A DNA stretch of 64,000 nt from an uncultured Acidobacteriaceae bacterium (GTDB lineage Bacteria > Acidobacteriota > Terriglobia > Terriglobales > Acidobacteriaceae): NCBI GenBank assembly GCA_963748225.1, contig CAVVHW010000015.1, positions 7,838 through 71,837 on the forward strand, written 5' to 3'. Shown in pieces: positions 4,981 to 61,817 of this stretch. A program made the translations under genes and the position numbers. The notes under the pieces were generated by a model. It saw only the letters and a program-made list of their open reading frames with translations, did not search any database and was not told the origin of the DNA. Positions within the stretch are counted from its first letter, which is position 1. The number at the start of each line of letters is the position of its first letter.

Positions 4981-5190
4981 GAACCGACTTTAGTCGGTGA
5001 GGGACCTGCTTTTGCGAGTTTTTTAGCAGTAGTCTCTTTAGTCGGCTGAGGATTGTTTTTTCGCCCCTGCAAGCTCGATGGGAGCGCACGACTAAGGCCG
5101 CAGGGCGACACAATCGTAGCCCAGTGCGTAAGCACTGGGTAGGCTCCTAAATAGAACCCCGAGCCCCGTAGGGGGGGCGGCACTCTAACG
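4973..5190. repeat. composite array of short hairpin repeats (B-type head plus others)
   Basis: It starts with gtcatcacgaaccgactttagtcggtgagggacctgctttt (B family). Hairpins follow, such as agcccagtgcgtaagcactggg and gagccccgtaggggg, which recur at 22420-22620. Confidence 0.6.
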
Positions 5191-5192
5191 CT

Positions 5193-5450
5193 TCAGCGTC
5201 CCATCTGATAGATCCGCAACCATTCCACCAGCACCACGAAAATTCCAATGCCGAAATAGAGGTTGCGTGCCGTTTGCGTTGTGAGCGCCGCGGGCAGAGG
5301 CATACCGCGGCTGCGCAAGGTCAACACTAGCGAATGCTCGTGCTTCGTAATGAAGTCGGCAATCCGCCTATGGAAGGCGATGATCAGCAATCCCAGACAA
5401 AGTCGCGCAATTTCGATGGCCATATCCGATGCTAGGCGCGAACGCCGCAT
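5193..5450 (-). CDS. hypothetical small membrane protein
   Basis: 85-aa ORF with two hydrophobic segments (LCLGLLIIAF, LYFGIGIFVVLVEWL). No recognised family. Confidence 0.4.
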   Translation of the reverse strand: MRRSRLASDMAIEIARLCLGLLIIAFHRRIADFITKHEHSLVLTLRSRGMPLPAALTTQTARNLYFGIGIFVVLVEWLRIYQMGR

Positions 5451-5549
5451 TCTCTCAATAGGCCGAAAACCTTAATCCTCCCGCCCGCCGGGCCGCCAAA
5501 GACCCGGTTTCTGCGTGCTAGAATCCCAGCAGGTTCCCCTGGGGTTCAA

Positions 5550-6398
5550 ATGAATTCCGATCTGCAGAAGCTGATCGACTTGCAAGAGGTCGATGCCCGA
5601 ATTGCCACGCTCCAGGCCGAGATCGCGGCGCTTCCCAAACAAGTCGCACAGATCGAGGCCAAACTCGCCGGCTCCAAGGCCCAACTCGAGGCCGCCCAAG
5701 CCGCCATCAAGGCTGACGAGGTCACCCGCCGCAAACACGAGTCCGACATCAAGGACCAGCAGGAGAAGATCAGCAAGTACCGCGACCAATCGCTCAAGGT
5801 CAAGACCAACGACGAGTACCGGGCGCTGAACCACGAAATCCAGTTTGCCGAGGCGGAGATCCGCAAGCTGGAAGACAAGATCCTGGAAATCATGGTCGCT
5901 ACCGATACGCGCAAAGAGGCGATCAAGCAGGCCGAAGCCGCGCTGAAGGCCGACACCGCCGCCAATGAAAAAGAAAAAGAGCACGCCCGCGCCCAAACCG
6001 CCGAGGACGAAAAGCAACTCGCCGAGCTGAACGCCACCCGTAAGCAACTTCGTTCCGGCGTCACCGAAGAAACGCTCACCCATTACGACCGCGTGCTCAA
6101 GCTGCGCGGCTCCGTGATGGCGGCGGTTCATGAAGATGAAAGTTGCTCGGCTTGCCGGGTGCGGCTACGCCCGCAGGTCTTCCAGGAAGTCACGACCAAC
6201 GAGCAAATTGTCACTTGCTTCTACTGCAATCGGATTCTGTACTACGTCCCCCCGCCACCGCCCAAGCCGGAAGAGCCGGAACAGAGAAAAGCGGGAAAGC
6301 AAGACACGCTAACAAACCTGCCAAAGAAGAGTCCGTCGAGGCCGACGAGGCTGCGGCGCAGTAATCGGAAGGGTTCAGTCGATGGTGACCGCCGTTGA
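5550..6398 (+). CDS. coiled-coil / C4 zinc-ribbon protein (COG1579, DUF164-type)
   Basis: It has a long heptad-rich N-terminal region (LIDLQEVDARIATLQAEIAALPKQ...). It ends with CSACRVRL...CFYCNRILY, the family's zinc ribbon, followed by a Pro/Lys-rich tail. Confidence 0.8.
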   Translation: MNSDLQKLIDLQEVDARIATLQAEIAALPKQVAQIEAKLAGSKAQLEAAQAAIKADEVTRRKHESDIKDQQEKISKYRDQSLKVKTNDEYRALNHEIQFAEAEIRKLEDKILEIMVATDTRKEAIKQAEAALKADTAANEKEKEHARAQTAEDEKQLAELNATRKQLRSGVTEETLTHYDRVLKLRGSVMAAVHEDESCSACRVRLRPQVFQEVTTNEQIVTCFYCNRILYYVPPPPPKPEEPEQRKAGKQDTLTNLPKKSPSRPTRLRRSNRKGSVDGDRR

Positions 6399-50062: not shown

Positions 50063-52402
50063 TCAACCGAGAGACTGTGCGCTCGCTTGCCGTCGCGCCT
50101 GGATCTCGATATACACGTTGATCAGTGACACCGCCGCGGGGGTGACGCCGGGAATGCGGCTGGCCTGACCCAGGGTGCGGGGACGCACGCGCCCCAGCTT
50201 TTCATTCATCTCGCGCGACAGGCCGCTCACTTTGGCGTAATCGAACCAGTCGGGAATCAGGCGCTCCTCGGAACGCTTCAAGCGCTCGATGGCTTTGCTC
50301 TGCTGGTCCAGGTAGCCGGAGTATTTGATCTCCGTCTCCACCGATTTCAGTTCGTTGCGGATTTCCGCTGGGAGGCGGAAAGCGGGGGATAGTGGATTGG
50401 GGCTAGTGGATAGCACGGAATCCCCGCCTGCTAAGCTCTCTTCAAGAGCAACCTTGGAAATTGGGTTTTGAAAGGGCATGGCTTCAGCCGTGCCGCTAAT
50501 CGTCAATTTTGCAACGGGCTTTGGCCCCTGAGGTTCTTTGCGTTCGGCTGTTCCGGCATTTGTAAGATGCCTTCTATCTACTATTCCCTGATCACTATCC
50601 ACTCGCTCGAAGAATCCCGGCATCAGCCTACGCAGCAACGGCGCCAATTGCTCGATCCCCACCTCTGGCCGCTTCAACAGTTGCGCCAGCGTCAAGCCGA
50701 GTGCGCCGTCCAGCTTGCCGCTATCGAGACTCGCATCTTCAGCCTGAGATAGACCGCCCTCGCCGCCCGTAGTCGAAACTTGAAGGTCGAAACTCGAAAC
50801 TTCTTCCAGCATTTCGCCGTTGATCCGGGTGCACTCCAGCAAATCACGCATGGCCTGCATGCGCTTCTGCTTGGCAAGATGATCAGCCCAGGCAGCATCG
50901 TTAATCAGTCCTACGCGGCGTCCATGCGGAGTGAGCCGGCGGTCGGCGTTGTCGATGCGCAAGTGCAGGCGGAACTCGGCGCGCGAGGTGAACATGCGGT
51001 AAGGCTCGTTTGTCCCCTTGCTGATGAGGTCGTCGATCAGGATGGCGGTGTAGGCCTCGGTGCGGTCCAAAATGAGCGGCGGCTCGCCCTTCACCTGCAG
51101 TGCAGCATTGATTCCGGCCATGATGCCCTGGCACGCCGCCTCTTCGTAGCCGCTGGTGCCGTTAATCTGCCCCGCGAGATAGAGCCGCGCGATCTTCTTC
51201 GTCTCCAGCGTGCGCTGCAGCTCGGTTGGGTCGATGGAATCGTATTCGATGGCGTAACCCGGCCGCAGCATCTCGGCGTTCTCCAAGCCGGGGATTGACT
51301 TGATAATCGCAAGCTGCACATCGATCGGCAGAGAAGTGCTCATCCCATTCACGTAGATCTCGTGCGTGTTCAGGCCCTCGGGCTCCAGAAAGAGCTGATG
51401 CGTTTCCTTGTCGGGAAACTTGACGATCTTGTCCTCGATCGACGGGCAGTATCGTGGTCCGATGCTTTGAATCTGCCCGCTGTACATCGGCGAACGATGC
51501 ACGTTCTCGCGGATGATGCGGTGCGTCTCCGGCGTGGTGAACGCGATGTAGCACGGCACCTGCTTGTCATGGTGCGCCACCCGCCGGGTGCGGAAGCTGA
51601 ATGGCGTGGGATCGTCGTCGCCGGGCTGCACCTTGAACTTCGACCAGTCAATGCTGCGTCCATCGAGACGCGGCGGCGTGCCGGTCTTCAGGCGACAGCC
51701 GCGCAGTCCAAGCGCCTTCAACGATTCACCCAGCAGAACCGCGTTTGGCTCCCCGCTGCGTCCGGCTGGGTATTGTTGCTCGCCACAGTGGATAAGCCCG
51801 TTCAGAAATGTTCCGGTGGTGATGATCACGGCTTGCGCGGAGACGGTGCGCCCGTCGCGCAGGCGAACACCAGTTACCAGTTGTCGGTTGTCAGTTGTCG
51901 GCGAAGAAGCAACAGTTCCCGCGCCTTCGCTCGGGATAACAGACGTTTTGGCTAGTTGCTGATTGCTAGTTGCTAGTTGCTCCACAACCAAATCCGCCAC
52001 CTCCGCCTGCTTTATGTGAAGGTTAGGCTCCGAATCGAGCAGCTCGCGCATCTTCAGCCGGTACTGCTGTTTGTCGCATTGGGCCCGGGGAGACCACACT
52101 GCCGGCCCGCGCGAAGTATTGAGCAGACGGAACTGGATGCCGACCGCGTCCGTTACTTCGCCCATGATGCCGCCCAAGGCGTCCACCTCGCGCACCAGGT
52201 GTCCTTTGGCGATGCCGCCGACCGCCGGATTGCACGACATTTGCGCGATCAGATCGACGTTGAGCGTGAACAGCGCAGTCTTCAATCCCATGCGCGCTGA
52301 GGCCATGGCGGCCTCGCACCCGGCGTGACCGGCGCCGACCACAACCACGTCGTAGGTTTCAGTGAACTGTTGCACAGGAAAACTACCCCACATGGCCGCC
52401 AA
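50063..52402 (-). CDS. mnmG: tRNA uridine 5-carboxymethylaminomethyl modification enzyme MnmG (GidA) with repeat-derived insertions
   Basis: FAD motif [16 protein letters not shown], then [25 protein letters not shown] and a C-terminal [13 protein letters not shown]. At 779 aa it is longer than usual because of in-frame repeat blocks. Confidence 0.95.
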
Positions 52403-52746
52403 CGCGGCCGATTAGATCTATTTTAGCGGAGATCGCCTCCTGCGAAGATTATCTCGGCGTGGATCGCGCGGACTCCATACCCGTTCCGCTTCAGAACAGC
52501 CACCGAAATATCCGTTCCCATTCGGAACTCTTATCGTCGGCCCCTTTGATTCTCCGCCCCACACTCTGCACTGTTTTGCACATCGCGCAGCGCCGCTTTT
52601 GGCACGCCCCGTTCAAGCCACGGTTTTCACGTCATTTGCGTCGCCCAAACAATTGGCGGCTGACGTGCCTTTATAGAAAACGATTGTCCGAACTCACCCC
52701 AGTGCATTCGGCCATGACGAGGAGAAAAGGAAAAAGGAGCCTTGTT

Positions 52747-53274
52747 ATGAAAAAGAATGTTCTGGGAGCCATCGCGGTTCTGTGTTGCGCACTTGCGTTT
52801 GCTGCGTACTCGCGAGCCGACGCCATCAACTTCAACTACTCCGGTGACGGAGTCACAGCCAGCGGCACGCTGTTCGGCACCAGCAACGGAAACGGTACCT
52901 GGACTGTAACCGGCATCTCCGGCACCTACAACGGAACTGCGATCGGCGGTATCGTTCCCTTGGGTGCCGATCCCAGCTACATCTACGACAACCTTTTCTA
53001 CTACCCAGCCGATCCGCTGTTCGTGGATAACGGCGGCATCCTGTTCAATGTGCCCGGCGTCGGCGATGTGAACTTGTACTACGATCCCAGCTTTGGATAC
53101 GGCAACATAACAGGCGATCTCAGCCGCGGTTTCGTGACCACTCCCGTGGCCGTAGATTTTTCCGCGTCCGCGCCTGAACCCCGCACTCTGGTGCTGGTAG
53201 GGACTGGCATTCTGGGCATGCTAGGAATTTATCGCCGTCGCGCGGCGCACTTGGCGTCCAACCGGGGTCGGTAA
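52747..53274 (+). CDS. PEP-CTERM sorting-domain secreted protein (third, unrelated N-domain)
   Basis: MKKNVLGAIAVLCCALAFAAYSRA signal, and C-terminal SAPEPRTLVLVGTGILGMLGIYRRR. AAGGAG lies upstream. Confidence 0.85.
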   Translation: MKKNVLGAIAVLCCALAFAAYSRADAINFNYSGDGVTASGTLFGTSNGNGTWTVTGISGTYNGTAIGGIVPLGADPSYIYDNLFYYPADPLFVDNGGILFNVPGVGDVNLYYDPSFGYGNITGDLSRGFVTTPVAVDFSASAPEPRTLVLVGTGILGMLGIYRRRAAHLASNRGR

Positions 53275-53434: not shown

Positions 53435-54097
53435 TTACGCCCGCTCAAATGCGTGCTTGGCGTGCAGATCTTCCAAGGCGCGATCCTTGAGGAAATGAAA
53501 CGCCTGCGCCCGCGCCAGCAAACCATCCGTCGCGCGAGCGTAATCGCCCGCCAGTTCCACCATGCCGCGTGCCGCCAGATCTTTCGCCGCAGCTAGCAGT
53601 TTGTCCATCATGTTCGGATCGCCGGCGTCCAGATATTGCGCGTCACACGGATCGGGGATCATCACCGGCTCACGCTGCTGCCCGCTCAACCAGAAAACCT
53701 TGCCCGCGACAAACTCTTCCACCTGTTGCGGCGTGGCATGCCAGAAGCGAAAGTGCCGATCGCGGATGCTGTAGCAGCGGCTCGAGACGGGTACCGGCTG
53801 CCGCTTACTCGACTTGAGTAGTTCCAGTTGCTTATCGTCGAGCGCTTTGCGGGCGGTGTTGATGGAGAGCCAAAACGCCAGGTCGCTGTCGAGCGACGGC
53901 AGCACCTCACGGATGGTCTGCGCCAGATTCAGCGCGATGTCGGCATACAAAGGCCCGCCATCGGCCAGGCGCAGCGTGCCGTGCAGAACGTACCAGTCGC
54001 TGCCACCGCCCGAGTGATGAAATGGCCATTGCAGCTCGATGTGCACCGGCATGCCGTGCAGGGTAACGCCATCGAAAGTTTTTTGTGTGTCCATCAA
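53435..54097 (-). CDS. hypothetical protein (no recognised domain)
   Basis: 220-aa ORF with normal composition and no competing long ORF of better quality. I recognise no motifs. Confidence 0.55.
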   Translation of the reverse strand: MMDTQKTFDGVTLHGMPVHIELQWPFHHSGGGSDWYVLHGTLRLADGGPLYADIALNLAQTIREVLPSLDSDLAFWLSINTARKALDDKQLELLKSSKRQPVPVSSRCYSIRDRHFRFWHATPQQVEEFVAGKVFWLSGQQREPVMIPDPCDAQYLDAGDPNMMDKLLAAAKDLAARGMVELAGDYARATDGLLARAQAFHFLKDRALEDLHAKHAFERA

Positions 54098-54228
54098 AAA
54101 CCAGCCATTTAAGATCGCAAACTATAGTGACACATCGGCAGGCGAAATAGAGAGATAGTGATTTACGAATCGTACAGTGTTATATGAGCAGCGGCCCACG
54201 CATAGAATATGAAACTCAACCATGGGGG

Positions 54229-54288
54229 CTCACGGAGGAAATTGGCTATGAACGGAAAACTCCGCGCCTCTGTGCCCTCTGTGGTGAG
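54229..54288. repeat. short CACGGAGG-type inverted-repeat element
   Basis: ctcacggaggaaa ... ctccgcgcctctgtgccctctgtggtgag. Confidence 0.5.
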
Positions 54289-54406
54289 CGATTTCAACGG
54301 AGCGCACGAATCAATAAACGCAGCTTTTCGCTATACTTTTTCCTCGCGCAGCTAGTCACTTAAAAGACGAGGAGAAGAATCCCTAACTCAATAACGAGGT
54401 CGATTC

Positions 54407-54889
54407 ATGACAGCCAGAATGAATTACTTAAACGCTCCCAAAGACGTAACCCAAGCCATGATGCAACTGCAGGAGCACGTCAGCAACAGCGGCCTCGAAC
54501 CGAAGCTACTGAACCTGGTTTATCTGCTGGTGTCGCGCATCAATGGATGCGCGTATTGCATTGACATGCACAGCAAAGACCTGCGGGCTCTGGGCGAAAC
54601 CGAGCTGCGCATTGACCTAGTCAGTGTGTGGGACGAATCGCCCGGTTATAGCGATCGCGAACGTGCAGCATTTGCCTGGGCCGAGTCGGTAACCAAGGTG
54701 AGTGAAACTCACGTGCCCGACGATGTGTACGCCCTGGCGCGCAAGCATTTTTCCGAGGAAGAGCTCGCTAAGCTGACGCTCGCCTTAATCGCCATCAACG
54801 GCTGGAACCGCTTTTGCATCTCGTTCCGCTTCGAACCGGGACACTATACGCCAGGACAGCACCAAACCACTAAGACTAAGGTGGCCTGA
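54407..54889 (+). CDS. carboxymuconolactone decarboxylase / AhpD-like family protein
   Basis: LVSRINGCAYCIDMHSKDL carries the AhpD-type CxxC in its usual context. 160 aa is the typical size. Confidence 0.85.
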   Translation: MTARMNYLNAPKDVTQAMMQLQEHVSNSGLEPKLLNLVYLLVSRINGCAYCIDMHSKDLRALGETELRIDLVSVWDESPGYSDRERAAFAWAESVTKVSETHVPDDVYALARKHFSEEELAKLTLALIAINGWNRFCISFRFEPGHYTPGQHQTTKTKVA

Positions 54890-54916: not shown

Positions 54917-54966
54917 TTCACCACGGAGGGCACGGCGTTACTTTCCGATGCCTTCCGTGGCGGCAC
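54917..54966. repeat. short CACGGAGG-type hairpin
   Basis: ttcaccacggagggcacgg ... tgccttccgtggcggcac. Confidence 0.55.
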
Positions 54967-54997
54967 TAACCTATCCGCCTGATCCTCCCTCCCGTCG

Positions 54998-55015
54998 TCA
55001 CACACACCTGTGTGA
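54998..55015. promoter_or_regulatory. palindrome upstream of the 111-aa ORF / radical SAM pair
   Basis: TCACACA cacc TGTGTGA (7-bp arms), about 100 nt upstream of ATG 55115. Confidence 0.3.
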
Positions 55016-55114
55016 GCGGTCACGGCATTCCATGACGCTCAAGAGCAAACTGAGACCAAGCTTCAAGTAACCCCGAACGCAGAGGGCAAACCTCATTTCG
55101 AAAGGAGAAATGAA

Positions 55115-55450
55115 ATGACTAATAAGCCAAGATCAGGAACAGTCGTGCACAAGGAAGGAAATTTCTTCCTCGAGGCGGAAGGCAAGCTCACGCCGATCCC
55201 GGTCAGCCCGAACTTTCAGCCAGGAACCTTGAAGGAGTTGGTCGGCAAGAAGGTGGAGGTGCTGTACACGGAACCGAGGAGCTTCGTGGCTGGATTGGTG
55301 GGCGGCCGAGTGCCCATCCTATGCTACTTCCCGGTCGATCCGTGGTTCAGTGTGGTGGACGAAGGAGCGCGTGCAAGCGTCGCTCAGCAGTTCCTTAGTG
55401 AGGGACTGATAAGCAAGGAAACCTTTGAAAAAATTGCCGGCGGCCGGTAA
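55115..55450 (+). CDS. hypothetical 111-aa protein preceding a radical SAM/SPASM gene
   Basis: AAAGGAGAAATGAAATG context. Normal composition, ends ...EKIAGGR. No recognised family. Confidence 0.6.
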   Translation: MTNKPRSGTVVHKEGNFFLEAEGKLTPIPVSPNFQPGTLKELVGKKVEVLYTEPRSFVAGLVGGRVPILCYFPVDPWFSVVDEGARASVAQQFLSEGLISKETFEKIAGGR

Positions 55451-55526
55451 TCCCTCATCGCTGGATATGTCCTTAATAATCTAATCTGAGCGGCTCGTTA
55501 ACAGCCGGTAAGAACGCTGGTATTTT

Positions 55527-56588
55527 ATGAAGCTAGCCCTGGACAGCTTCCAATCAAGACCCCTCCCCAAGAGCTTCGTTATCGAACTGACCAAACGCTG
55601 CAACAATCATTGTCTCTATTGCTACATGACAGAGGGACCCTCTGCGCAGGACTGCGACCGTGATCGAAGCAGCGAGATGAACGCCCAAGAGGTGACTGAC
55701 GTTATTGGGAAGTTGTGTGACGAGGCTCCCGTGCAATCGATCGCTTTGTCTGGGGGTGAGCCGCTATTGCGAGAGGATCTCCCCGAGATCCTCTCATTCA
55801 TTCGCAATAAAGGAATAGCCCCCGTCGTCATCACCAATGGCACGCTATTAACAGCGGAACGACTTGCATCTTTGGGCACAGATGTTACCTACGAGATCAC
55901 TCTGCTCAGCTATCGTCGCCAGGTGCACGACCGGCTGGCGGGGCGCCGAGGAGCCTGGGATGCCGCAGTGGACGGTATGGCGAATGTCCGGCAGGCCAAA
56001 GGCAATTTCGTAACTGTGTTTGTAGCTACCAAACTCAACAGTGACGAGGTCGGCAAAACCGCAGAACTGGCCCTTGCCCTGGGCGCGACCGGCTTGATGT
56101 ATAACCGCATGAACCTGGGCGCACACAACATTCGCAATGCCGATCGCCTGCTGCCAACCGCTGCCACGATTCGACAAAACCTGGATAGCTTAGAGGAACT
56201 GAGTGCGCGGTACCAATTGCCGGTCGCAGTCGCGGTGGCCATCGAGCCGTGTGTAATCGACACACGACAGTACAAACAGATTCATTTTGGCTGGTGCCCG
56301 CTGGCGGGAGAAGGATCGTACTTCACTGTCGATCCGAGCGGGAATGTGCGCATCTGCAATCACTCGGGCGTCATTCTAGGTAACCTGAAGACGGATCGCT
56401 TCACTGACATCTACTACAACCATCCTTACGTGCGGGCTTTTCGCGAGACCTGGCCCGCGGAGTGCGAGAGTTGCGAGCCGGAACTCAAGGCCATTTGCTG
56501 CGGAGGCTGTAAAGCCGCGGCCGAACAGTGCTACGGCAGCCTCGCAAAAGTTGATCCTTTTGTGACCATAAGCCGGCAGGCAAACTGA
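55527..56588 (+). CDS. radical SAM protein with C-terminal SPASM domain (peptide/protein-modifying maturase type)
   Basis: CNNHCLYC (CxxxCxxC) near the N-terminus, the SAM-binding GGEPLL, and a C-terminal Cys-rich CPLAGEGSYFTVDPSGNVRICNH ... CESCEPELKAICCGGCKAAA typical of SPASM auxiliary clusters. Confidence 0.85.
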   Translation: MKLALDSFQSRPLPKSFVIELTKRCNNHCLYCYMTEGPSAQDCDRDRSSEMNAQEVTDVIGKLCDEAPVQSIALSGGEPLLREDLPEILSFIRNKGIAPVVITNGTLLTAERLASLGTDVTYEITLLSYRRQVHDRLAGRRGAWDAAVDGMANVRQAKGNFVTVFVATKLNSDEVGKTAELALALGATGLMYNRMNLGAHNIRNADRLLPTAATIRQNLDSLEELSARYQLPVAVAVAIEPCVIDTRQYKQIHFGWCPLAGEGSYFTVDPSGNVRICNHSGVILGNLKTDRFTDIYYNHPYVRAFRETWPAECESCEPELKAICCGGCKAAAEQCYGSLAKVDPFVTISRQAN

Positions 56589-56624
56589 CCGTGTGGGTTC
56601 GCAGTTTGACGCTGCCAAAAAGAT

Positions 56625-56662
56625 TTCCGCTCCTCTGTGCCCCCCGTGCCTCCATGTTAAAA
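56625..56662. repeat. solo right-end copy of the CACGGAGG-type element
   Basis: ttccgctcctctgtgccccccgtgcctccatgttaaaaa resembles the right terminus actccgtgccctccgtgcctccgtggtgaaaaa at 60549-60581. Confidence 0.45.
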
Positions 56663-56684: not shown

Positions 56685-57938
56685 ATGTCTTTCCGCTTCC
56701 AGGTTGAAGCGCGCGATGGTGCAGCCCGCGCCGGACGTTTCTTCACGCCGCACGGTGAAGTCCGGACCCCCGTCTTCATGCCGGTGGGAACGCTGGCGAC
56801 GGTCAAGGGCGTCCCGCAAGGCACGCTGGAAGAGCTGGGCGTCCAGATCCTGCTGAACAACACCTACCATCTTTATCTGCGCCCGGGCGTCGAGATGGTC
56901 CGCCGACTTGGCGGGGTGCAGAAGTTCATGGCCTGGGACCGTCCCATCCTCACCGACTCCGGCGGCTTTCAGGTGTTCAGCCTCAGCGATCTGCGCAAGG
57001 TCACGGAAGAAGGCGTGGCGTTCCGTTCTCACCTCGACGGGTCATCACATTTTTTCAGTCCGGAGAGTGCCATCGCGGCCGAGATTGGCCTGGGCGCCGA
57101 CATCATCATGGCGTTCGACGAATGTACCGAGCATCCCGCGGAGTACTCGCGCACGGAAGCGTCGATGGAGATGACGCTGCGCTGGGCAGCGCGCAGCAAG
57201 AGGTATTTCGAAGAGCACAAACATGAAGTGCCGTGGTATTCACGCGGACTGAAGTCGGCGGGAGAATTTAATGTCGCGCTGAACGGCACGGCTGAAGCCG
57301 CGTCCCTTCAAAGCGAAAGCGAAACCCAAACGCTCTTCGGAATTGTGCAGGGCGGCATGTTTCCCGATCTGCGTCGTGAATCAGCGCAGCGGACAGTTGA
57401 GCTTGATTTCCCGGGCTATGCGATCGGAGGCTTGAGTGTCGGCGAACCGCGCCCCATGACCTACGAAATGGTGGACGCCGCCATCCGCTTCCTCCCTGAG
57501 GACAAGCCGCGTTACCTAATGGGAGTGGGCACGCCGGAGGAGATTGTGCACTACGTGGCCATGGGTGTGGACATGATGGACTGCGTGCTACCCACACGGG
57601 CGGCGCGGCACGGGTTGCTGTTCACTTCCGAAGGCCGCCTCACGATCAAGAACGCTCGCTATGCCACCGACGACGGTCCGCTCGACCCCAAGTGCGCCTG
57701 CCAGGTCTGCTGCCGCTATTCACGGGCTTATCTGCGGCATCTGTATGCCTCGAACGAGCTACTCGCGCAGGTGTTGAACACCGTCCACAACCTGGCATAT
57801 TACCTTGACACTATGAGGAGGGTGCGGCAAGCTATAATACTTGGGGAATTAGCGATTTTTCTTTCTGGCATCCGGCCACCGCATCTCCCACCCCAATCCG
57901 CGCAAAAGGGGCGCGGCTCGGGGACCCCGGAAAGCTGA
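56685..57938 (+). CDS. tgt: tRNA-guanine transglycosylase (queuine tRNA-ribosyltransferase) with repeat-derived insertion
   Basis: ARAGRFFTPHGEVRTPVFMPVGT, TDSGGFQV, GIVQGG, LMGVGTPEE, and the zinc site CACQVCCRYSRAYLRHL. An extra ~30 aa lies before GIVQGG. Confidence 0.95.
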   Translation: MSFRFQVEARDGAARAGRFFTPHGEVRTPVFMPVGTLATVKGVPQGTLEELGVQILLNNTYHLYLRPGVEMVRRLGGVQKFMAWDRPILTDSGGFQVFSLSDLRKVTEEGVAFRSHLDGSSHFFSPESAIAAEIGLGADIIMAFDECTEHPAEYSRTEASMEMTLRWAARSKRYFEEHKHEVPWYSRGLKSAGEFNVALNGTAEAASLQSESETQTLFGIVQGGMFPDLRRESAQRTVELDFPGYAIGGLSVGEPRPMTYEMVDAAIRFLPEDKPRYLMGVGTPEEIVHYVAMGVDMMDCVLPTRAARHGLLFTSEGRLTIKNARYATDDGPLDPKCACQVCCRYSRAYLRHLYASNELLAQVLNTVHNLAYYLDTMRRVRQAIILGELAIFLSGIRPPHLPPQSAQKGRGSGTPES

Positions 57939-58435: not shown

Positions 58436-60055
58436 ATGAATAAGAATCTCCTCCTCAAAACAGTTTTGATTGTCGCGGTGCTGATCTTCTTTCTCTTCGG
58501 CATCTTTGGAATCCCCGGGAGTCTCACCGGCGAAGGGTTGAAGGCTGCGGTGCAGAAGCGCATCCACCTGGGCCTTGATCTCAAAGGCGGGACTCACCTG
58601 ATCCTTCAGGTACAGGTCAACGACGCGGTCAACGCCGACAGTGACCGTGCGGTGGAACGGCTGAAAGACTCCCTGAAGAGCGCTAACATCGCCTTCGGAG
58701 AAATCTCCAAGCCCGACCCGCAGAACCACCCGGAGCTGATCCAGATTAAGGGTGTGCCGCCGGAGTCCTCGTCCGAACTGCGTCGCATCGTCAACGAGAA
58801 GCTGGGCGATTACGATCTCGCCTCGGGCGCTGAGAACACCTGGACTGTCACCATGAAGCCCTCGATCGCCAATGACACCAAGAAGAAAGCGGTGCAGCAG
58901 GCCATCGAAACCATCCGCAATCGAATCGATCAGCTTGGCGTGTCCGAGCCGGTCATTCAGGAGCATGGACTGGGCGACTATCAGATCCTGGTGCAGTTGC
59001 CGGGTGTGGACGATCCCGCCCGCGTGAAAGAGATCATGCAGTCCACGGCCATGCTGGAGATTCGGCAGGCGGTCAAGGGGCCTTATCCGTCGGAGCAAGC
59101 CGCCATGCAAGACAACGGTGGCATACTTCCACCCGACACGGTTCTGATGAAGGGCAATATGCCGCACCCGCAGAATCCTGATGAGTCTGGCGACGTGTAC
59201 TGGCTCATCAGCCGTTCCTCCGCGGTAAGCGGTGCCGACCTGCGTTCCGCCGATGCGGGCCGTGACGAGAACGGCCGCGCCGATGTCAATTTCACTCTAA
59301 CCGGTGACGGCGGACGGCGCTTTGCCGCCTTCACCGGAGCCCATGTCGGCGACAAGCTGGCCGTGGTGCTCGATAACAAAGTGAAGTCGGTAGCCACCAT
59401 TCAGGAGCAGATCCACGATACCGGCCGCATCACCGGATCGTTCACTCCTGAAGAGACCCAGGATCTGGCGTTGACACTGCGCTCCGGCGCACTGCCGGCA
59501 GGAATCAAGTACCTGCAGGAGGTCACGGTGGGGCCGTCGCTGGGGGCCGATTCCATTCGCGAGGGCGTGCGCGCGGCGGTCGTTGGCATGGTTGCCGTGC
59601 TCATCTTCATGCTCTTCTACTACCACGCAGCCGGGATCAACGCCGACCTCGGGTTGATCCTGAACCTGGTGATCCTGCTGGGATTCCTCGGTTACAGCGG
59701 TGCGACGCTCACCCTGCCGGGAATCGCGGGTGTGATTCTGACCGTCGGTATGGGCGTGGATTCCAACGTTCTGATCTTCGAGCGCATTCGTGAGGAGTTG
59801 CGACACGGTAAGACACCCTCTTCCGCTGTGGACCAGGGTTTTGCTCACGCCTGGACGACGATTATCGATACGCACGTCACGACTATCGTGTCGGCGATCA
59901 TCCTGTTCCTGTTCGGAACCGGCCCGGTAAAAGGATTTGCCGTGACCCTCAGCTTCGGTCTGGCGGCGAACCTGTTCACCGCGGTTTTCGTCTCGCGCGT
60001 GATTTTCGAATCCATTCTCAGTCGCCATCAGCGTGGCGAGCCATTGAGCATTTAG
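58436..60055 (+). CDS. secD: protein translocase subunit SecD
   Basis: N-terminal TM segment, a large periplasmic domain (LGLDLKGG, GVSEPVIQ), and a C-terminal 5-TM bundle with GIAGVILTVGMGVDSNVLIFERIREE. Confidence 0.95.
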   Translation: MNKNLLLKTVLIVAVLIFFLFGIFGIPGSLTGEGLKAAVQKRIHLGLDLKGGTHLILQVQVNDAVNADSDRAVERLKDSLKSANIAFGEISKPDPQNHPELIQIKGVPPESSSELRRIVNEKLGDYDLASGAENTWTVTMKPSIANDTKKKAVQQAIETIRNRIDQLGVSEPVIQEHGLGDYQILVQLPGVDDPARVKEIMQSTAMLEIRQAVKGPYPSEQAAMQDNGGILPPDTVLMKGNMPHPQNPDESGDVYWLISRSSAVSGADLRSADAGRDENGRADVNFTLTGDGGRRFAAFTGAHVGDKLAVVLDNKVKSVATIQEQIHDTGRITGSFTPEETQDLALTLRSGALPAGIKYLQEVTVGPSLGADSIREGVRAAVVGMVAVLIFMLFYYHAAGINADLGLILNLVILLGFLGYSGATLTLPGIAGVILTVGMGVDSNVLIFERIREELRHGKTPSSAVDQGFAHAWTTIIDTHVTTIVSAIILFLFGTGPVKGFAVTLSFGLAANLFTAVFVSRVIFESILSRHQRGEPLSI

Positions 60056-60062
60056 AGGCGTG

Positions 60063-60578
60063 TTCACCACGGAGGCACCGAGGACACAGCGTTTTAAAAA
60101 AATTGGGGAGAAATTCCTAGAAAGCTACGGAGTTCATGATCGGCGAGATGCAGAGAACGACCGGAAGGGTTGAGCTTATTGAAGCCGAGCTAACCGGCGA
60201 GATCATCGGGGCTGCTGTTTCTGTGCATCGGGAACTCGGGCCGGGTTTGCTTGAATCGACCTATGAAGCCTGCATGTGTCATGAGTTTGAACTGAGAGAA
60301 ATTCCGTTTCGCTGCCAGGTTGAGTTGCCTGTGGAGTACAAAGGCTGCCATCTGGACTGCGGATATCGCATTGACTTGGTTGTGGACAATCGTGTGATTG
60401 TCCAACTCAAATCGGTCGAAGGTTTATCGGCCATTCACGAATCGCAATTGCTCACTTATCTGAGGCTAAGCAGGCTACAGGTTGGACTACTTATCAATTT
60501 CAACGTTCCCATCCTGCGCAAGGGCATTGTAAGAAGAGTTTTATAGAAACTCCGTGCCCTCCGTGCCTCCGTGGTGAA
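60063..60578. mobile_element. TIR-bounded mini-element carrying a GxxExxY gene, inserted between secD and secF
   Basis: The left terminus 60063-60094 is ttcaccacggaggcaccgaggacacagcgttt. The reverse complement of the right terminus 60547-60578 is ttcaccacggaggcacggagggcacggagttt. The first 16 nt are identical and 28 of 32 match. The right TIR begins immediately after the cargo stop codon. Confidence 0.65.
60136..60546 (+). CDS. GxxExxY-family protein (PD-(D/E)XK nuclease-like fold)
   Basis: ELGPGLLESTYEACM contains the G-L-L-E-S-T-Y motif. RIDLVVDNRVIVQLKSV corresponds to the family's D...(E)xK block but has Gln where Glu is usual. LLTYLRLSRLQVGLLINF is the conserved C-terminal region. Confidence 0.85.
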   Translation: MIGEMQRTTGRVELIEAELTGEIIGAAVSVHRELGPGLLESTYEACMCHEFELREIPFRCQVELPVEYKGCHLDCGYRIDLVVDNRVIVQLKSVEGLSAIHESQLLTYLRLSRLQVGLLINFNVPILRKGIVRRVL

Positions 60579-60599
60579 AAATTAGCAAGGGGTTTAGCG

Positions 60600-61817
60600 G
60601 TGGAGTTATTTCGCGATACCAATATCGATTTCCTGGGCAAGAAGTGGTATTTCCTTGCCTTCTCCCTGGTGTTCAGCGTCGCCGGAATCTGTTCCATGTT
60701 GTTCTGGCACCACATCCCCCTGGGGGTGGAGTTCCGCGGCGGCACGCTGGTTTACGTCAAGTTCGCGCAGACGCCTGACCTTGACCAGATTCGTCGCGAC
60801 ATGGACCGGGCCGGACTGCATGATCCCCGCATCCAGCGCTTCGGTCCGACCGCCGACAACGAGGTGCTGGTCGATCTGGGTATCCAGGAAACCAGCGAAG
60901 CGGCGCTCGACAAGGGCAAGAACACCATCATCAAAGCCCTGCAGGTCCGCAGCCCGGTCGCCGAAGGCAAGCAAGACCTGAATAACGTGGGCACCGCCAG
61001 CTTGCAGCAGTACCTGCTGCAGAAAGACCCGCTGCATTTGGGCATTGACGCCGGTCCCAAGTATGAAACCATCGCCCAACAGATTGAGGACTTCCGCAAC
61101 AAAGAGCGCGGCGGCATTTTGACTTCGATGGATGAGCTGCGCGGAGTCGTTGCTCCCGAGGTAATCAGCGCGCTGCAGCAGGACTTCTACACCTCCAACT
61201 TTGTGGTGCGCAACGTCGAAATCGTGGGACCGCAGGTGGGCTCGCAGCTGCGCCGTCAGGCCATCATGGCCACGTTGTACTCGCTGGCTGGAATGCTGAT
61301 TTATCTATGGTTCCGCTTTGAGATGATTTACGGCGTGGGCGCGGTTGTGGCCTGCTTCCACGACACCATTATCACGGTGGGCTTCTTCTCCTTGCTCGAT
61401 AAAGAAATAAGCCTGACCGTGATCGCGGCCATCTTGACGCTGATTGGCTACTCGATGAACGACACCATCGTCGTCTTCGACCGTATTCGCGAAAACATTA
61501 AGCTGCTGCGTCGTGAACCGCTGGCCGATATTGTCAATAAGAGCATCAACCAGACACTGAGCCGAACCATCCTGACCTCCGGCCTCACCTTCCTCACCGT
61601 ACTTTCGTTGTACTTGTTTGGCGGCGAGGTGCTGCGTGGATTTTCATTGGCCCTGGTAATTGGAATCTTGATCGGAACGTATTCGTCGATTGCCGTGGCG
61701 GCGCCTATGTTGGTGGCTTATCAGGACTGGCGGTCCAAGCGAGCCGGACAGTCCGCGGCTCAGCGCACGTCGTCACCTCGTGACAAGTCTCGCGAAAAAG
61801 TGAAGGTCAAGGCCTAG
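60600..61817 (+). CDS. secF: protein translocase subunit SecF
   Basis: GTG start. FLGKKWYFLAFSLVFSV, GVEFRGGT, and a C-terminal TM bundle with GYSMNDTIVVFDRIREN. Confidence 0.95.
   Translation: MELFRDTNIDFLGKKWYFLAFSLVFSVAGICSMLFWHHIPLGVEFRGGTLVYVKFAQTPDLDQIRRDMDRAGLHDPRIQRFGPTADNEVLVDLGIQETSEAALDKGKNTIIKALQVRSPVAEGKQDLNNVGTASLQQYLLQKDPLHLGIDAGPKYETIAQQIEDFRNKERGGILTSMDELRGVVAPEVISALQQDFYTSNFVVRNVEIVGPQVGSQLRRQAIMATLYSLAGMLIYLWFRFEMIYGVGAVVACFHDTIITVGFFSLLDKEISLTVIAAILTLIGYSMNDTIVVFDRIRENIKLLRREPLADIVNKSINQTLSRTILTSGLTFLTVLSLYLFGGEVLRGFSLALVIGILIGTYSSIAVAAPMLVAYQDWRSKRAGQSAAQRTSSPRDKSREKVKVKA

Follow-up and report, generated by a model that had tools for sequence, protein, structure and literature searches.

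A conserved gene pair encoding a radical SAM/SPASM enzyme and a small protein with an invariant cysteine: a probable protein-modification cassette from an uncultured Acidobacteriaceae bacterium

Introduction

Radical S-adenosylmethionine (SAM) enzymes with a SPASM domain have repeatedly been a source of new chemistry on proteins and peptides, with thioethers, C-C crosslinks, PQQ and mycofactocin as examples. In the QhpD system, the substrate QhpC is a subunit of roughly 100 amino acids (aa) with several Cys residues and a cleaved leader, and its gene shares an operon with those for a protease, an exporter and the subunits of the dehydrogenase. Sactipeptide and ranthipeptide systems are built on short leader-core substrates and on enzymes with an N-terminal RRE domain (recognition element of RiPPs, peptides that are made by ribosomes and modified after translation), and a protease or transporter is usually present. 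The motif that anaerobic sulfatase-maturating enzymes (anSMEs) target in sulfatases is C/S-x-P/A-x-R. Members of the superfamily cleave SAM and use the resulting 5'-deoxyadenosyl radical to abstract a hydrogen atom from the substrate, while auxiliary clusters handle the electron; anSME removes a hydrogen atom from the beta-carbon of the target Cys, and the chemistry of QhpD is centered on Cys residues that form thioethers to the beta- or gamma-carbons of Asp or Glu (PMC10114670). Here, a pair of genes is described that was found in a stretch of 64,000 nucleotides (nt) of contig CAVVHW010000015.1 from an uncultured Acidobacteriaceae bacterium (this whole stretch is referred to as the window). 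The pair encodes a radical SAM/SPASM enzyme and, directly upstream, a protein of 111 aa with a single invariant Cys residue, which is the probable target of the enzyme.

Results

The pair consists of two co-oriented genes that are separated by 76 nt. The first gene (positions 55115-55450, forward strand, +) encodes the 111-aa protein, the likely substrate, which ends in ...EKIAGGR. Its ATG is preceded at a distance of 7 nt by the Shine-Dalgarno sequence AAGGAG (55102-55107, +). The second gene (55527-56588, +) encodes the enzyme of 353 aa, which contains the motif C25NNHC29LYC32 (codons for the CxxxCxxC residues 25-32 at 55599-55622, +), the motif GGEPLL at residues 76-81 and a C-terminal Cys cluster (codons for the SPASM Cys region, residues 242-335, at 56250-56531, +). 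Most of these properties, including the good Shine-Dalgarno sequence and the 76-nt distance of the small open reading frame (ORF), had been listed in an earlier note on this DNA, and they were read again in the sequence; for the enzyme, they agree with the Pfam assignments given below.

The linkage of the two genes was analyzed in both directions. Starting from the enzyme, one genome per species was scanned, which yielded 20 loci with enzymes 52-93% identical to that of the window, and a homolog of the small gene was found directly upstream of the enzyme gene in 19 of these 20 species genomes. These loci include Acidobacteriaceae, Bryobacteraceae and other Terriglobia as well as an Anaerolineales genome and an alphaproteobacterium. 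The reverse co-occurrence, from the small protein to the enzyme, was followed by contig look-ups of distant members. Seven further independent metagenome contexts (L002, L030, L032, L034, L035, L037 and L039), in some of which the identity to the window is as low as 20-28% for the small protein and 35-41% for the enzyme, were all paired, and every distant small-protein member with a readable contig had the enzyme directly downstream, often with overlapping genes. This also applies to P0285, P0278 and P0284, small proteins that are only 20-28% identical to the protein of the window and are accompanied by enzymes of 35-40% identity, and to P0236, which lies beside a second tandem paralog and whose enzyme was split by the gene caller. 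Altogether, of 27 independent genomic contexts, 26 have the two genes side by side and in the same order; the paired contexts cover Acidobacteriota, Anaerolineales, one alphaproteobacterium and unassigned metagenome contigs. Overlaps of 4-23 nt between the genes occur in several other lineages and suggest co-translation.

Clustering of all ORFs of 18 loci returned only two recurring families, and the remaining clusters represented antisense shadows of the enzyme gene. No third gene, protease or transporter/exporter recurs among these loci; at the locus in the window, the earlier note had seen neither a protease nor a transporter nor a known precursor family. The pair is a conserved unit without any other co-travelling gene. 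It occupies the same chromosomal position, beside tgt-yajC, in close relatives, and its flanks differ in distant genomes, which points to vertical inheritance over short range and to movement as a unit over long range. Within the window, only the shared orientation and the 76-nt gap tie the two genes to each other, and they could be regarded as mere neighbors, with the 111-aa ORF being unrelated to the enzyme or not a real gene. The co-occurrence data already contradict this explanation, as the pair is kept across phyla while its other neighbors differ, and the ORF is backed by a family of about 120 representatives, a motif that is conserved and a Shine-Dalgarno sequence that does not vary. 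A chance neighborhood is therefore extremely improbable, and the phylogenetic linkage of the 111-aa ORF to this enzyme clade, on which the earlier note had made its proposal depend, is found both in the species genomes and among all readable distant homologs. As a separate observation, a second, unrelated radical SAM gene is located next to the pair or the enzyme gene at loci L024, L023 (5647-7296, -), L014 (5086-6165, -) and L037 (2209-3603, +). The gene at L014 may be a true pqqE, which its product resembles by eye, and the gene at L037 lies among small ORFs of 49-83 aa.

The 111-aa protein has no match in Pfam or NCBIfam, and database annotation of its family is limited to the term "hypothetical protein". 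When 1.84 billion cluster representatives were searched with a profile, 135 matches were obtained at E <= 0.001. About 120 of them, counted as representatives at 50% identity, are 95-165 aa long, and homologs were detected down to 20% identity. A few very long matches (2973-5636 aa), which contain 'CYLDPD' repeats, resemble plectin-repeat proteins (GGILDP...); they aligned only in the C-terminal helix region and were discarded as spurious. Among 63 diverse members, C70 is the sole invariant column, and conservation reaches at least 90% for G8, G44, V47, Y71 and P73. Cys70 is encoded by the TGC codon at 55322-55324 within the stretch I68-L69-C70-Y71-F72-P73 (55316-55333, +), and it is proposed as the site of modification. 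The motif was also counted in 111 representatives that were centered on the Cys and chosen for containing the motif; in this motif-selected set, the consensus is [KR]-P-P-x-I-[LIT]-C-Y-[IVL]-P-[AP]-P-D, the residue after the Cys is Tyr in 107 of 111 sequences, Pro is present at +3 in 105 of 111, and the motif Cys is the only Cys residue in 60 of 111. Cys-Asn replaces Cys-Tyr in four members that form a subclade (P0143, P0148, P0167 and P0175), and P0167 is also paired with an enzyme. The core C-Y-[IVL]-P holds no conserved Arg residue and does not follow the sulfatase-type pattern C/S-x-P/A-x-R.

Longer members carry two to four copies of the motif (four in P0147 and P0159, three in P0154 and two in many others). 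In two-copy members, the motifs are either spaced apart or arranged in tandem, as CYFILCY or CFICY. The four-motif protein P0159 is paired with a single enzyme. At locus L035, two paralogous small proteins (1238-1579 and 1756-2163), each with the Cys motif, are encoded in tandem before a single enzyme gene. Paired identities of small protein and enzyme amount to 57% versus 80%, 40% versus 60% and 33% versus 54%; divergence is thus faster in the small protein than in the enzyme, with the motif remaining unchanged. The small protein shows no evident signal peptide.

The fold of the small protein was predicted with AlphaFold2. A first model built from 19 close homologs, with a predicted local distance difference test (pLDDT) score of 58.8 and an uninformative Foldseek search, was replaced by a model based on the 63-sequence alignment, which reached a mean pLDDT of 81.5. 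In this model, residues 6-62 form a small beta-barrel of five strands and a short helix. They are followed by a loop (residues 63-82) that carries Cys70 and has the lowest confidence (pLDDT 61-64), and by two confident helices (83-95 and 101-108), which give a C-terminal helical hairpin within residues 83-108. Foldseek comparison with the PDB returned nothing significant, the best matches being OB/S1-like barrels (K3L, Mpa OB domain) at E >= 0.3, and a profile search of PDB sequences with the small protein was empty. The C-terminal helices gave weak, below-cut-off matches to SHOCT_2 for 12 of the 63 members at E <= 1 (best 1.4e-4), and the protein of the window scored 15.1 bits against a cut-off of 24. 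SHOCT domains are thought to mediate oligomerization.

These results bear on the three roles that the earlier note had considered for the 111-aa protein, namely substrate, RRE-like recognition partner or unrelated protein. An RRE- or PqqD-like fold, a winged helix of three strands followed by three helices, which was to be looked for by structure prediction, is not seen: the predicted barrel and hairpin are unlike PqqD, no such match was obtained in Pfam, NCBIfam or the PDB profile search, and the fold is absent from the Foldseek list. The evidence favors a substrate over the two other roles. More generally, the small protein could be a helper of the enzyme, such as a chaperone, a PqqD/MftB-like recognition subunit or a donor of electrons or clusters, with the real substrate, a peptide or small molecule, located elsewhere. 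A helper would suit an enzyme without its own RRE, as is the case for PqqE, which requires the separate PqqD in the PQQ pathway; it would also suit a small protein that is predicted to be largely folded, and locus L024, where the enzyme occurs with no small gene nearby. This role is nevertheless improbable, as there is no sequence or fold similarity to PqqD or RRE domains, neither a third gene nor a candidate precursor is recurrent among the 18 loci, and an invariant lone Cys in a disordered loop, in a motif that is multiplied two to four times, is unexpected for a helper. The fact that longer members multiply the motif yet keep a single enzyme suggests a substrate instead.

The enzyme matched the Pfam models PF04055 (Radical_SAM) with 78.5 bits (cut-off 29.5) and PF13186 (SPASM) with 31.2 bits (cut-off 21.5), which places it in the radical SAM superfamily and the SPASM subfamily. 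In an alignment of 17 homologs ranging from 80% down to 35% identity, the residues of the motif C25-x3-C29-x2-C32 for the SAM-binding [4Fe-4S] cluster are invariant, as are C242, C257, C277, C313, C316, C324 and C328, and C335 is at least 90% conserved. The resulting pattern C242, C257-x14-G272-x4-C277, C313-x2-C316-x7-C324-x3-C328-x6-C335 corresponds to the SPASM arrangement CX9-15GX4C ... CX2CXnCX3C ... C, with a spacer of x7 where x5 is canonical, and is a complete eight-Cys SPASM pattern, enough for two auxiliary clusters. As the SAM-cluster motif begins at residue 25, the enzyme has no N-terminal RRE domain.

Comparison with NCBIfam yielded 77 weakly matching models, none of which reached its curated cut-off. 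The best scores were obtained for NirJ2 (122 bits, cut-off 500) and PqqE (TIGR02109, 114.7 bits, cut-off 381), with lower scores for the heme-pathway enzymes AhbD (90 bits, cut-off 500) and AhbC (87 bits, cut-off 650) and for ScmE/F (77 bits, cut-off 400) and MftC (67 bits, cut-off 265); anSME was not among the 25 best matches. The nearest solved structure in the PDB is PqqE (6c8v, E 7.5e-12, aligned over residues 12-349), and SkfB, CteB (5wgg, E 1.3e-5) and MoaA matched more weakly; no chain named as a sulfatase maturase was returned at E <= 0.001. Neither pqq genes (including pqqB, pqqC and pqqD) nor mft genes (with MftA and MftB as the neighbors looked for) accompany the pair in the window or in the 18 loci. 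With no NCBIfam equivalog near its cut-off and PqqE as the best PDB match, the enzyme falls outside the anSME and cofactor-biosynthesis clades, an assignment to which the earlier note had named as a point that would speak against its proposal. By these comparisons, it belongs to no known clade.

The weak best matches of the enzyme include the cofactor enzymes NirJ2, AhbD and MoaA, which would fit a small protein that serves as a carrier or scaffold: Cys70 would hold a small molecule or the precursor of a cofactor, and the enzyme would act on this tethered group instead of on residues of the protein. One invariant, exposed Cys residue and the lack of a linked protease or exporter gene would be in line with such a carrier. 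The similarity to cofactor enzymes, however, lies far under every curated cut-off, no linked gene is available to load or unload a tethered group, and the strongly conserved flanks of the Cys (I-L-C-Y-x-P) look more like a site by which the enzyme recognizes the peptide itself. A carrier is accordingly held to be quite improbable.

The small gene is preceded by a conserved 5' region of about 115 nt (54997-55114, +), which contains the palindrome TCACACA-cacc-TGTGTGA (54998-55015), two GTCAC words at a distance of 22 nt and the Shine-Dalgarno sequence. In 10 related genomes, conservation begins abruptly at GTCACA and continues to the ATG, and sequences farther upstream are unrelated; the equivalent regions are found at approximately 3480-3600 in L006-L009, L015, L016, L018, L020 and L022. 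The Shine-Dalgarno sequence is invariant among the relatives. The palindrome was already noted before and is present at these positions, but close relatives have not preserved its palindromic form. An RNA element in this 5' leader was considered and rejected, as no Rfam match was obtained, RNAalifold detected no covariation (term +0.63) and a hairpin drawn by eye was left unsupported. With both the Rfam and the covariation analysis being negative, an operator or promoter is likelier than a structured RNA, and the region is probably a promoter, operator or 5' untranslated region. The intercistronic spacer (55451-55526, +; 76 nt) contains a weak hairpin (55504-55521) followed by a T-run before the start codon of the enzyme gene, and its sequence is conserved among Acidobacteriaceae relatives (GAGCGGCT and GGTAGGAACGTTGGTATTTTATG). 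A consensus scan flagged the hairpin as terminator-like, but such matches are no commoner than in shuffled sequence. The hairpin and T-run could serve to adjust how much substrate is made relative to enzyme.

The earlier note had described the pair as bracketed by repeats of the CACGGAGG type that resemble miniature inverted-repeat transposable elements, which are tens to hundreds of bp long and occur in many copies. The degenerate 14-nt motif CACRGRGGGCACRG is present in four copies in the window, where 0.25 are expected, and these are spread over 54.2-60.6 kb. One copy (CACGGAGGGCACGG, 54922-54935, +) and another on the minus strand (CACGGGGGGCACAG, 56635-56648, -) lie on either side of the pair, outside the functional unit, and two more are located at 54270-54283 (-) and 60552-60565 (-), so that the repeats do flank the pair but do not bracket it specifically. 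All copies seen are situated between ORFs, and the motif often takes the form of adjacent CACGGAGG units. Related 8-mers were observed at 54231, 60068 and 60566; the bare 8-mer CACGGAGG is not enriched in itself (5 versus 2.8 expected). Homology between the copies of the motif extends over only 14-28 nt, neither terminal inverted repeats nor target-site duplications were seen, and the pair resides at the same locus in close relatives, all of which contradicts such an element. The motif is a short dispersed intergenic one, perhaps a repetitive extragenic palindrome (REP)-like element or a protein binding site. The GC content of the cassette (52-57%) is lower than that of the flanks (59-62%), and the regions 54000-54600 and 60000-60600 are lower still. 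The previously reported dip is thus real, at about 5 points, but slight and not unusual in the window. A mobile or foreign island was rejected, given this ordinary GC dip and the conserved position of the pair beside tgt-yajC in close relatives.

The genes around the pair in the window have ordinary housekeeping functions or no relation to it. Upstream lie mnmG (50063-52402, -), a gene for a PEP-CTERM protein (52459-53274), a gene for a 220-aa protein without a Pfam, NCBIfam or PADLOC match (53435-54097, -) and a gene for a carboxymuconolactone-decarboxylase/AhpD-like protein (54407-54889, +; Pfam CMD above cut-off). Downstream, tgt (56685-57938) is followed by yajC, secD and secF; these four genes, mnmG and the PEP-CTERM gene carry putative names based on their translated sequences. 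The closest genomes to the window are uncultured Acidobacteriaceae assemblies. The 220-aa protein is 88-94% identical in close relatives and absent from distant loci, which places it outside the unit. The AhpD/CMD-family gene was found upstream in the close relatives L015, L016, L018, L020 and L022 and had no match in L007 and L008, where the locus has otherwise kept its position. The gene is thus a variable neighbor without linkage to the pair. A defense system was also considered and rejected, as the PADLOC match to viperins was confined to their generic radical SAM core.

Discussion

The two genes probably form a self-contained operon in which the product of the upstream gene, the small protein, receives a post-translational modification from the radical SAM/SPASM enzyme. 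The protein-modification cassette that had been suggested for this locus gains support from the linkage of the pair, the one invariant Cys residue and the variable copy number of the motif. An invariant residue in an exposed loop, the multiplication of the motif and the faster divergence of the small protein together make up the pattern of an enzyme and its substrate. Since the enzyme has no RRE domain, the beta-barrel and helical hairpin of the substrate are likely to offer the docking surface, and these folded parts would take the place of a leader peptide and its RRE. The Cys loop would then enter the active site of the enzyme, cleavage of SAM would generate the 5'-deoxyadenosyl radical, a hydrogen atom would be taken at or next to Cys70, and the auxiliary clusters would accept the electron.

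Several products are conceivable. Given the invariance of the Cys residue, either its oxidation or the formation of a thioether is suggested. One tentative candidate is a thioether crosslink of the Cys, of the type made in sacti- or ranthipeptides and by QhpD, and a product outside the types named here is a similarly tentative option. It is rather unlikely that the beta-carbon of the Cys is oxidized in the manner of formylglycine formation, and much the same holds for a C-C or C-O crosslink via Tyr71. Given the Cys-Asn variants, a Tyr-based reaction cannot be universal, which weakens the idea of a universal Cys-Tyr crosslink. The lack of a linked protease or exporter and of a signal peptide suggests that the modified product is an intracellular whole protein rather than a released peptide. 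It is conceivable, though unlikely, that the Cys-Tyr-x-Pro loop receives a previously unseen modification, for example a new crosslink type or a built-in redox cofactor made from Cys/Tyr, and that the family constitutes a new class of radical-SAM-matured intracellular whole proteins in soil Acidobacteriota, Chloroflexota and others.

Some observations weigh against a modification of the small protein at its Cys loop. At locus L024 (Syntrophorhabdaceae), the enzyme is 52% identical to that of the window and neither a homologous small ORF nor the motif is present within the 9 kb covered; a second radical SAM/SPASM gene (5020-6138, +) overlaps the stop codon of the first enzyme gene there. Tyr71 is changed to Asn in the subclade of P0143, P0148, P0167 and P0175. 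Eight conserved SPASM Cys residues suggest fully Cys-ligated auxiliary clusters, as in anSME and SuiB, and full ligation fits less well with the binding of a thiolate at an open site that is used by the thioether synthase CteB. The Cys loop is also the least confident part of the model, and the substrate role, most likely as it is, draws on comparative sequence evidence.

No description of this small-protein/enzyme family was found in full-text literature searches of an incomplete collection, and no curated Pfam or NCBIfam model covers it. The family is thus an uncurated one from abundant and poorly studied soil phyla, and its minimal composition of one enzyme, one substrate and one invariant Cys is well suited to direct testing. 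If the proposed reading is true, a folded substrate with a barrel and helices would replace leader and RRE, which would broaden target recognition by SPASM enzymes, and RiPP-mining tools keyed to short precursors or RRE domains would overlook such systems.

Four known systems come closest to the pair. In the QhpD/QhpC system, a SPASM enzyme introduces crosslinks into quinohemoprotein amine dehydrogenase, namely into its small gamma subunit, so that a protein rather than a short peptide is modified and the product stays in the protein. The partner described here differs from QhpC in having one invariant Cys and no other linked gene, and the enzyme of the window reaches no NCBIfam family. PqqE provides the closest solved structure and the second-best NCBIfam match, has no N-terminal RRE and is related by the upstream position of the substrate gene. 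However, the score of 115 bits stands against a cut-off of 381, pqqB, pqqC and pqqD are not nearby, and the partner is a folded protein of 111 aa with a Cys motif, in contrast to PqqA, a peptide of about 25 aa with its Glu and Tyr residues. With anSME, the system would share a SPASM enzyme with two auxiliary clusters that modifies one specific Cys residue of a protein, but the target motif here is C-Y-x-P and the partner, without a Pfam or NCBIfam match, is not a sulfatase. The sacti- and ranthipeptide maturases (AlbA, CteB, PapB, SCIFF) resemble the present enzyme in that their genes lie beside a gene for a Cys-containing substrate, and repeated Cys motifs are common in their precursors, as in the longer members of this family; in contrast, the short leader-core substrate, the RRE and the protease or transporter are all absent here and most members have a single Cys. 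The locus also differs from a classical RiPP cluster, as the partner of 95-165 aa is predicted to be folded and no protease or transporter recurs in the 18 loci, although cleavage by an unlinked protease may occur. The kind of system, a SPASM maturase with an adjacent substrate, is known; the present one differs in three respects, as the probable substrate is a folded protein of about 110 aa, the invariant Cys motif is a single one, and nothing else is linked to the pair.

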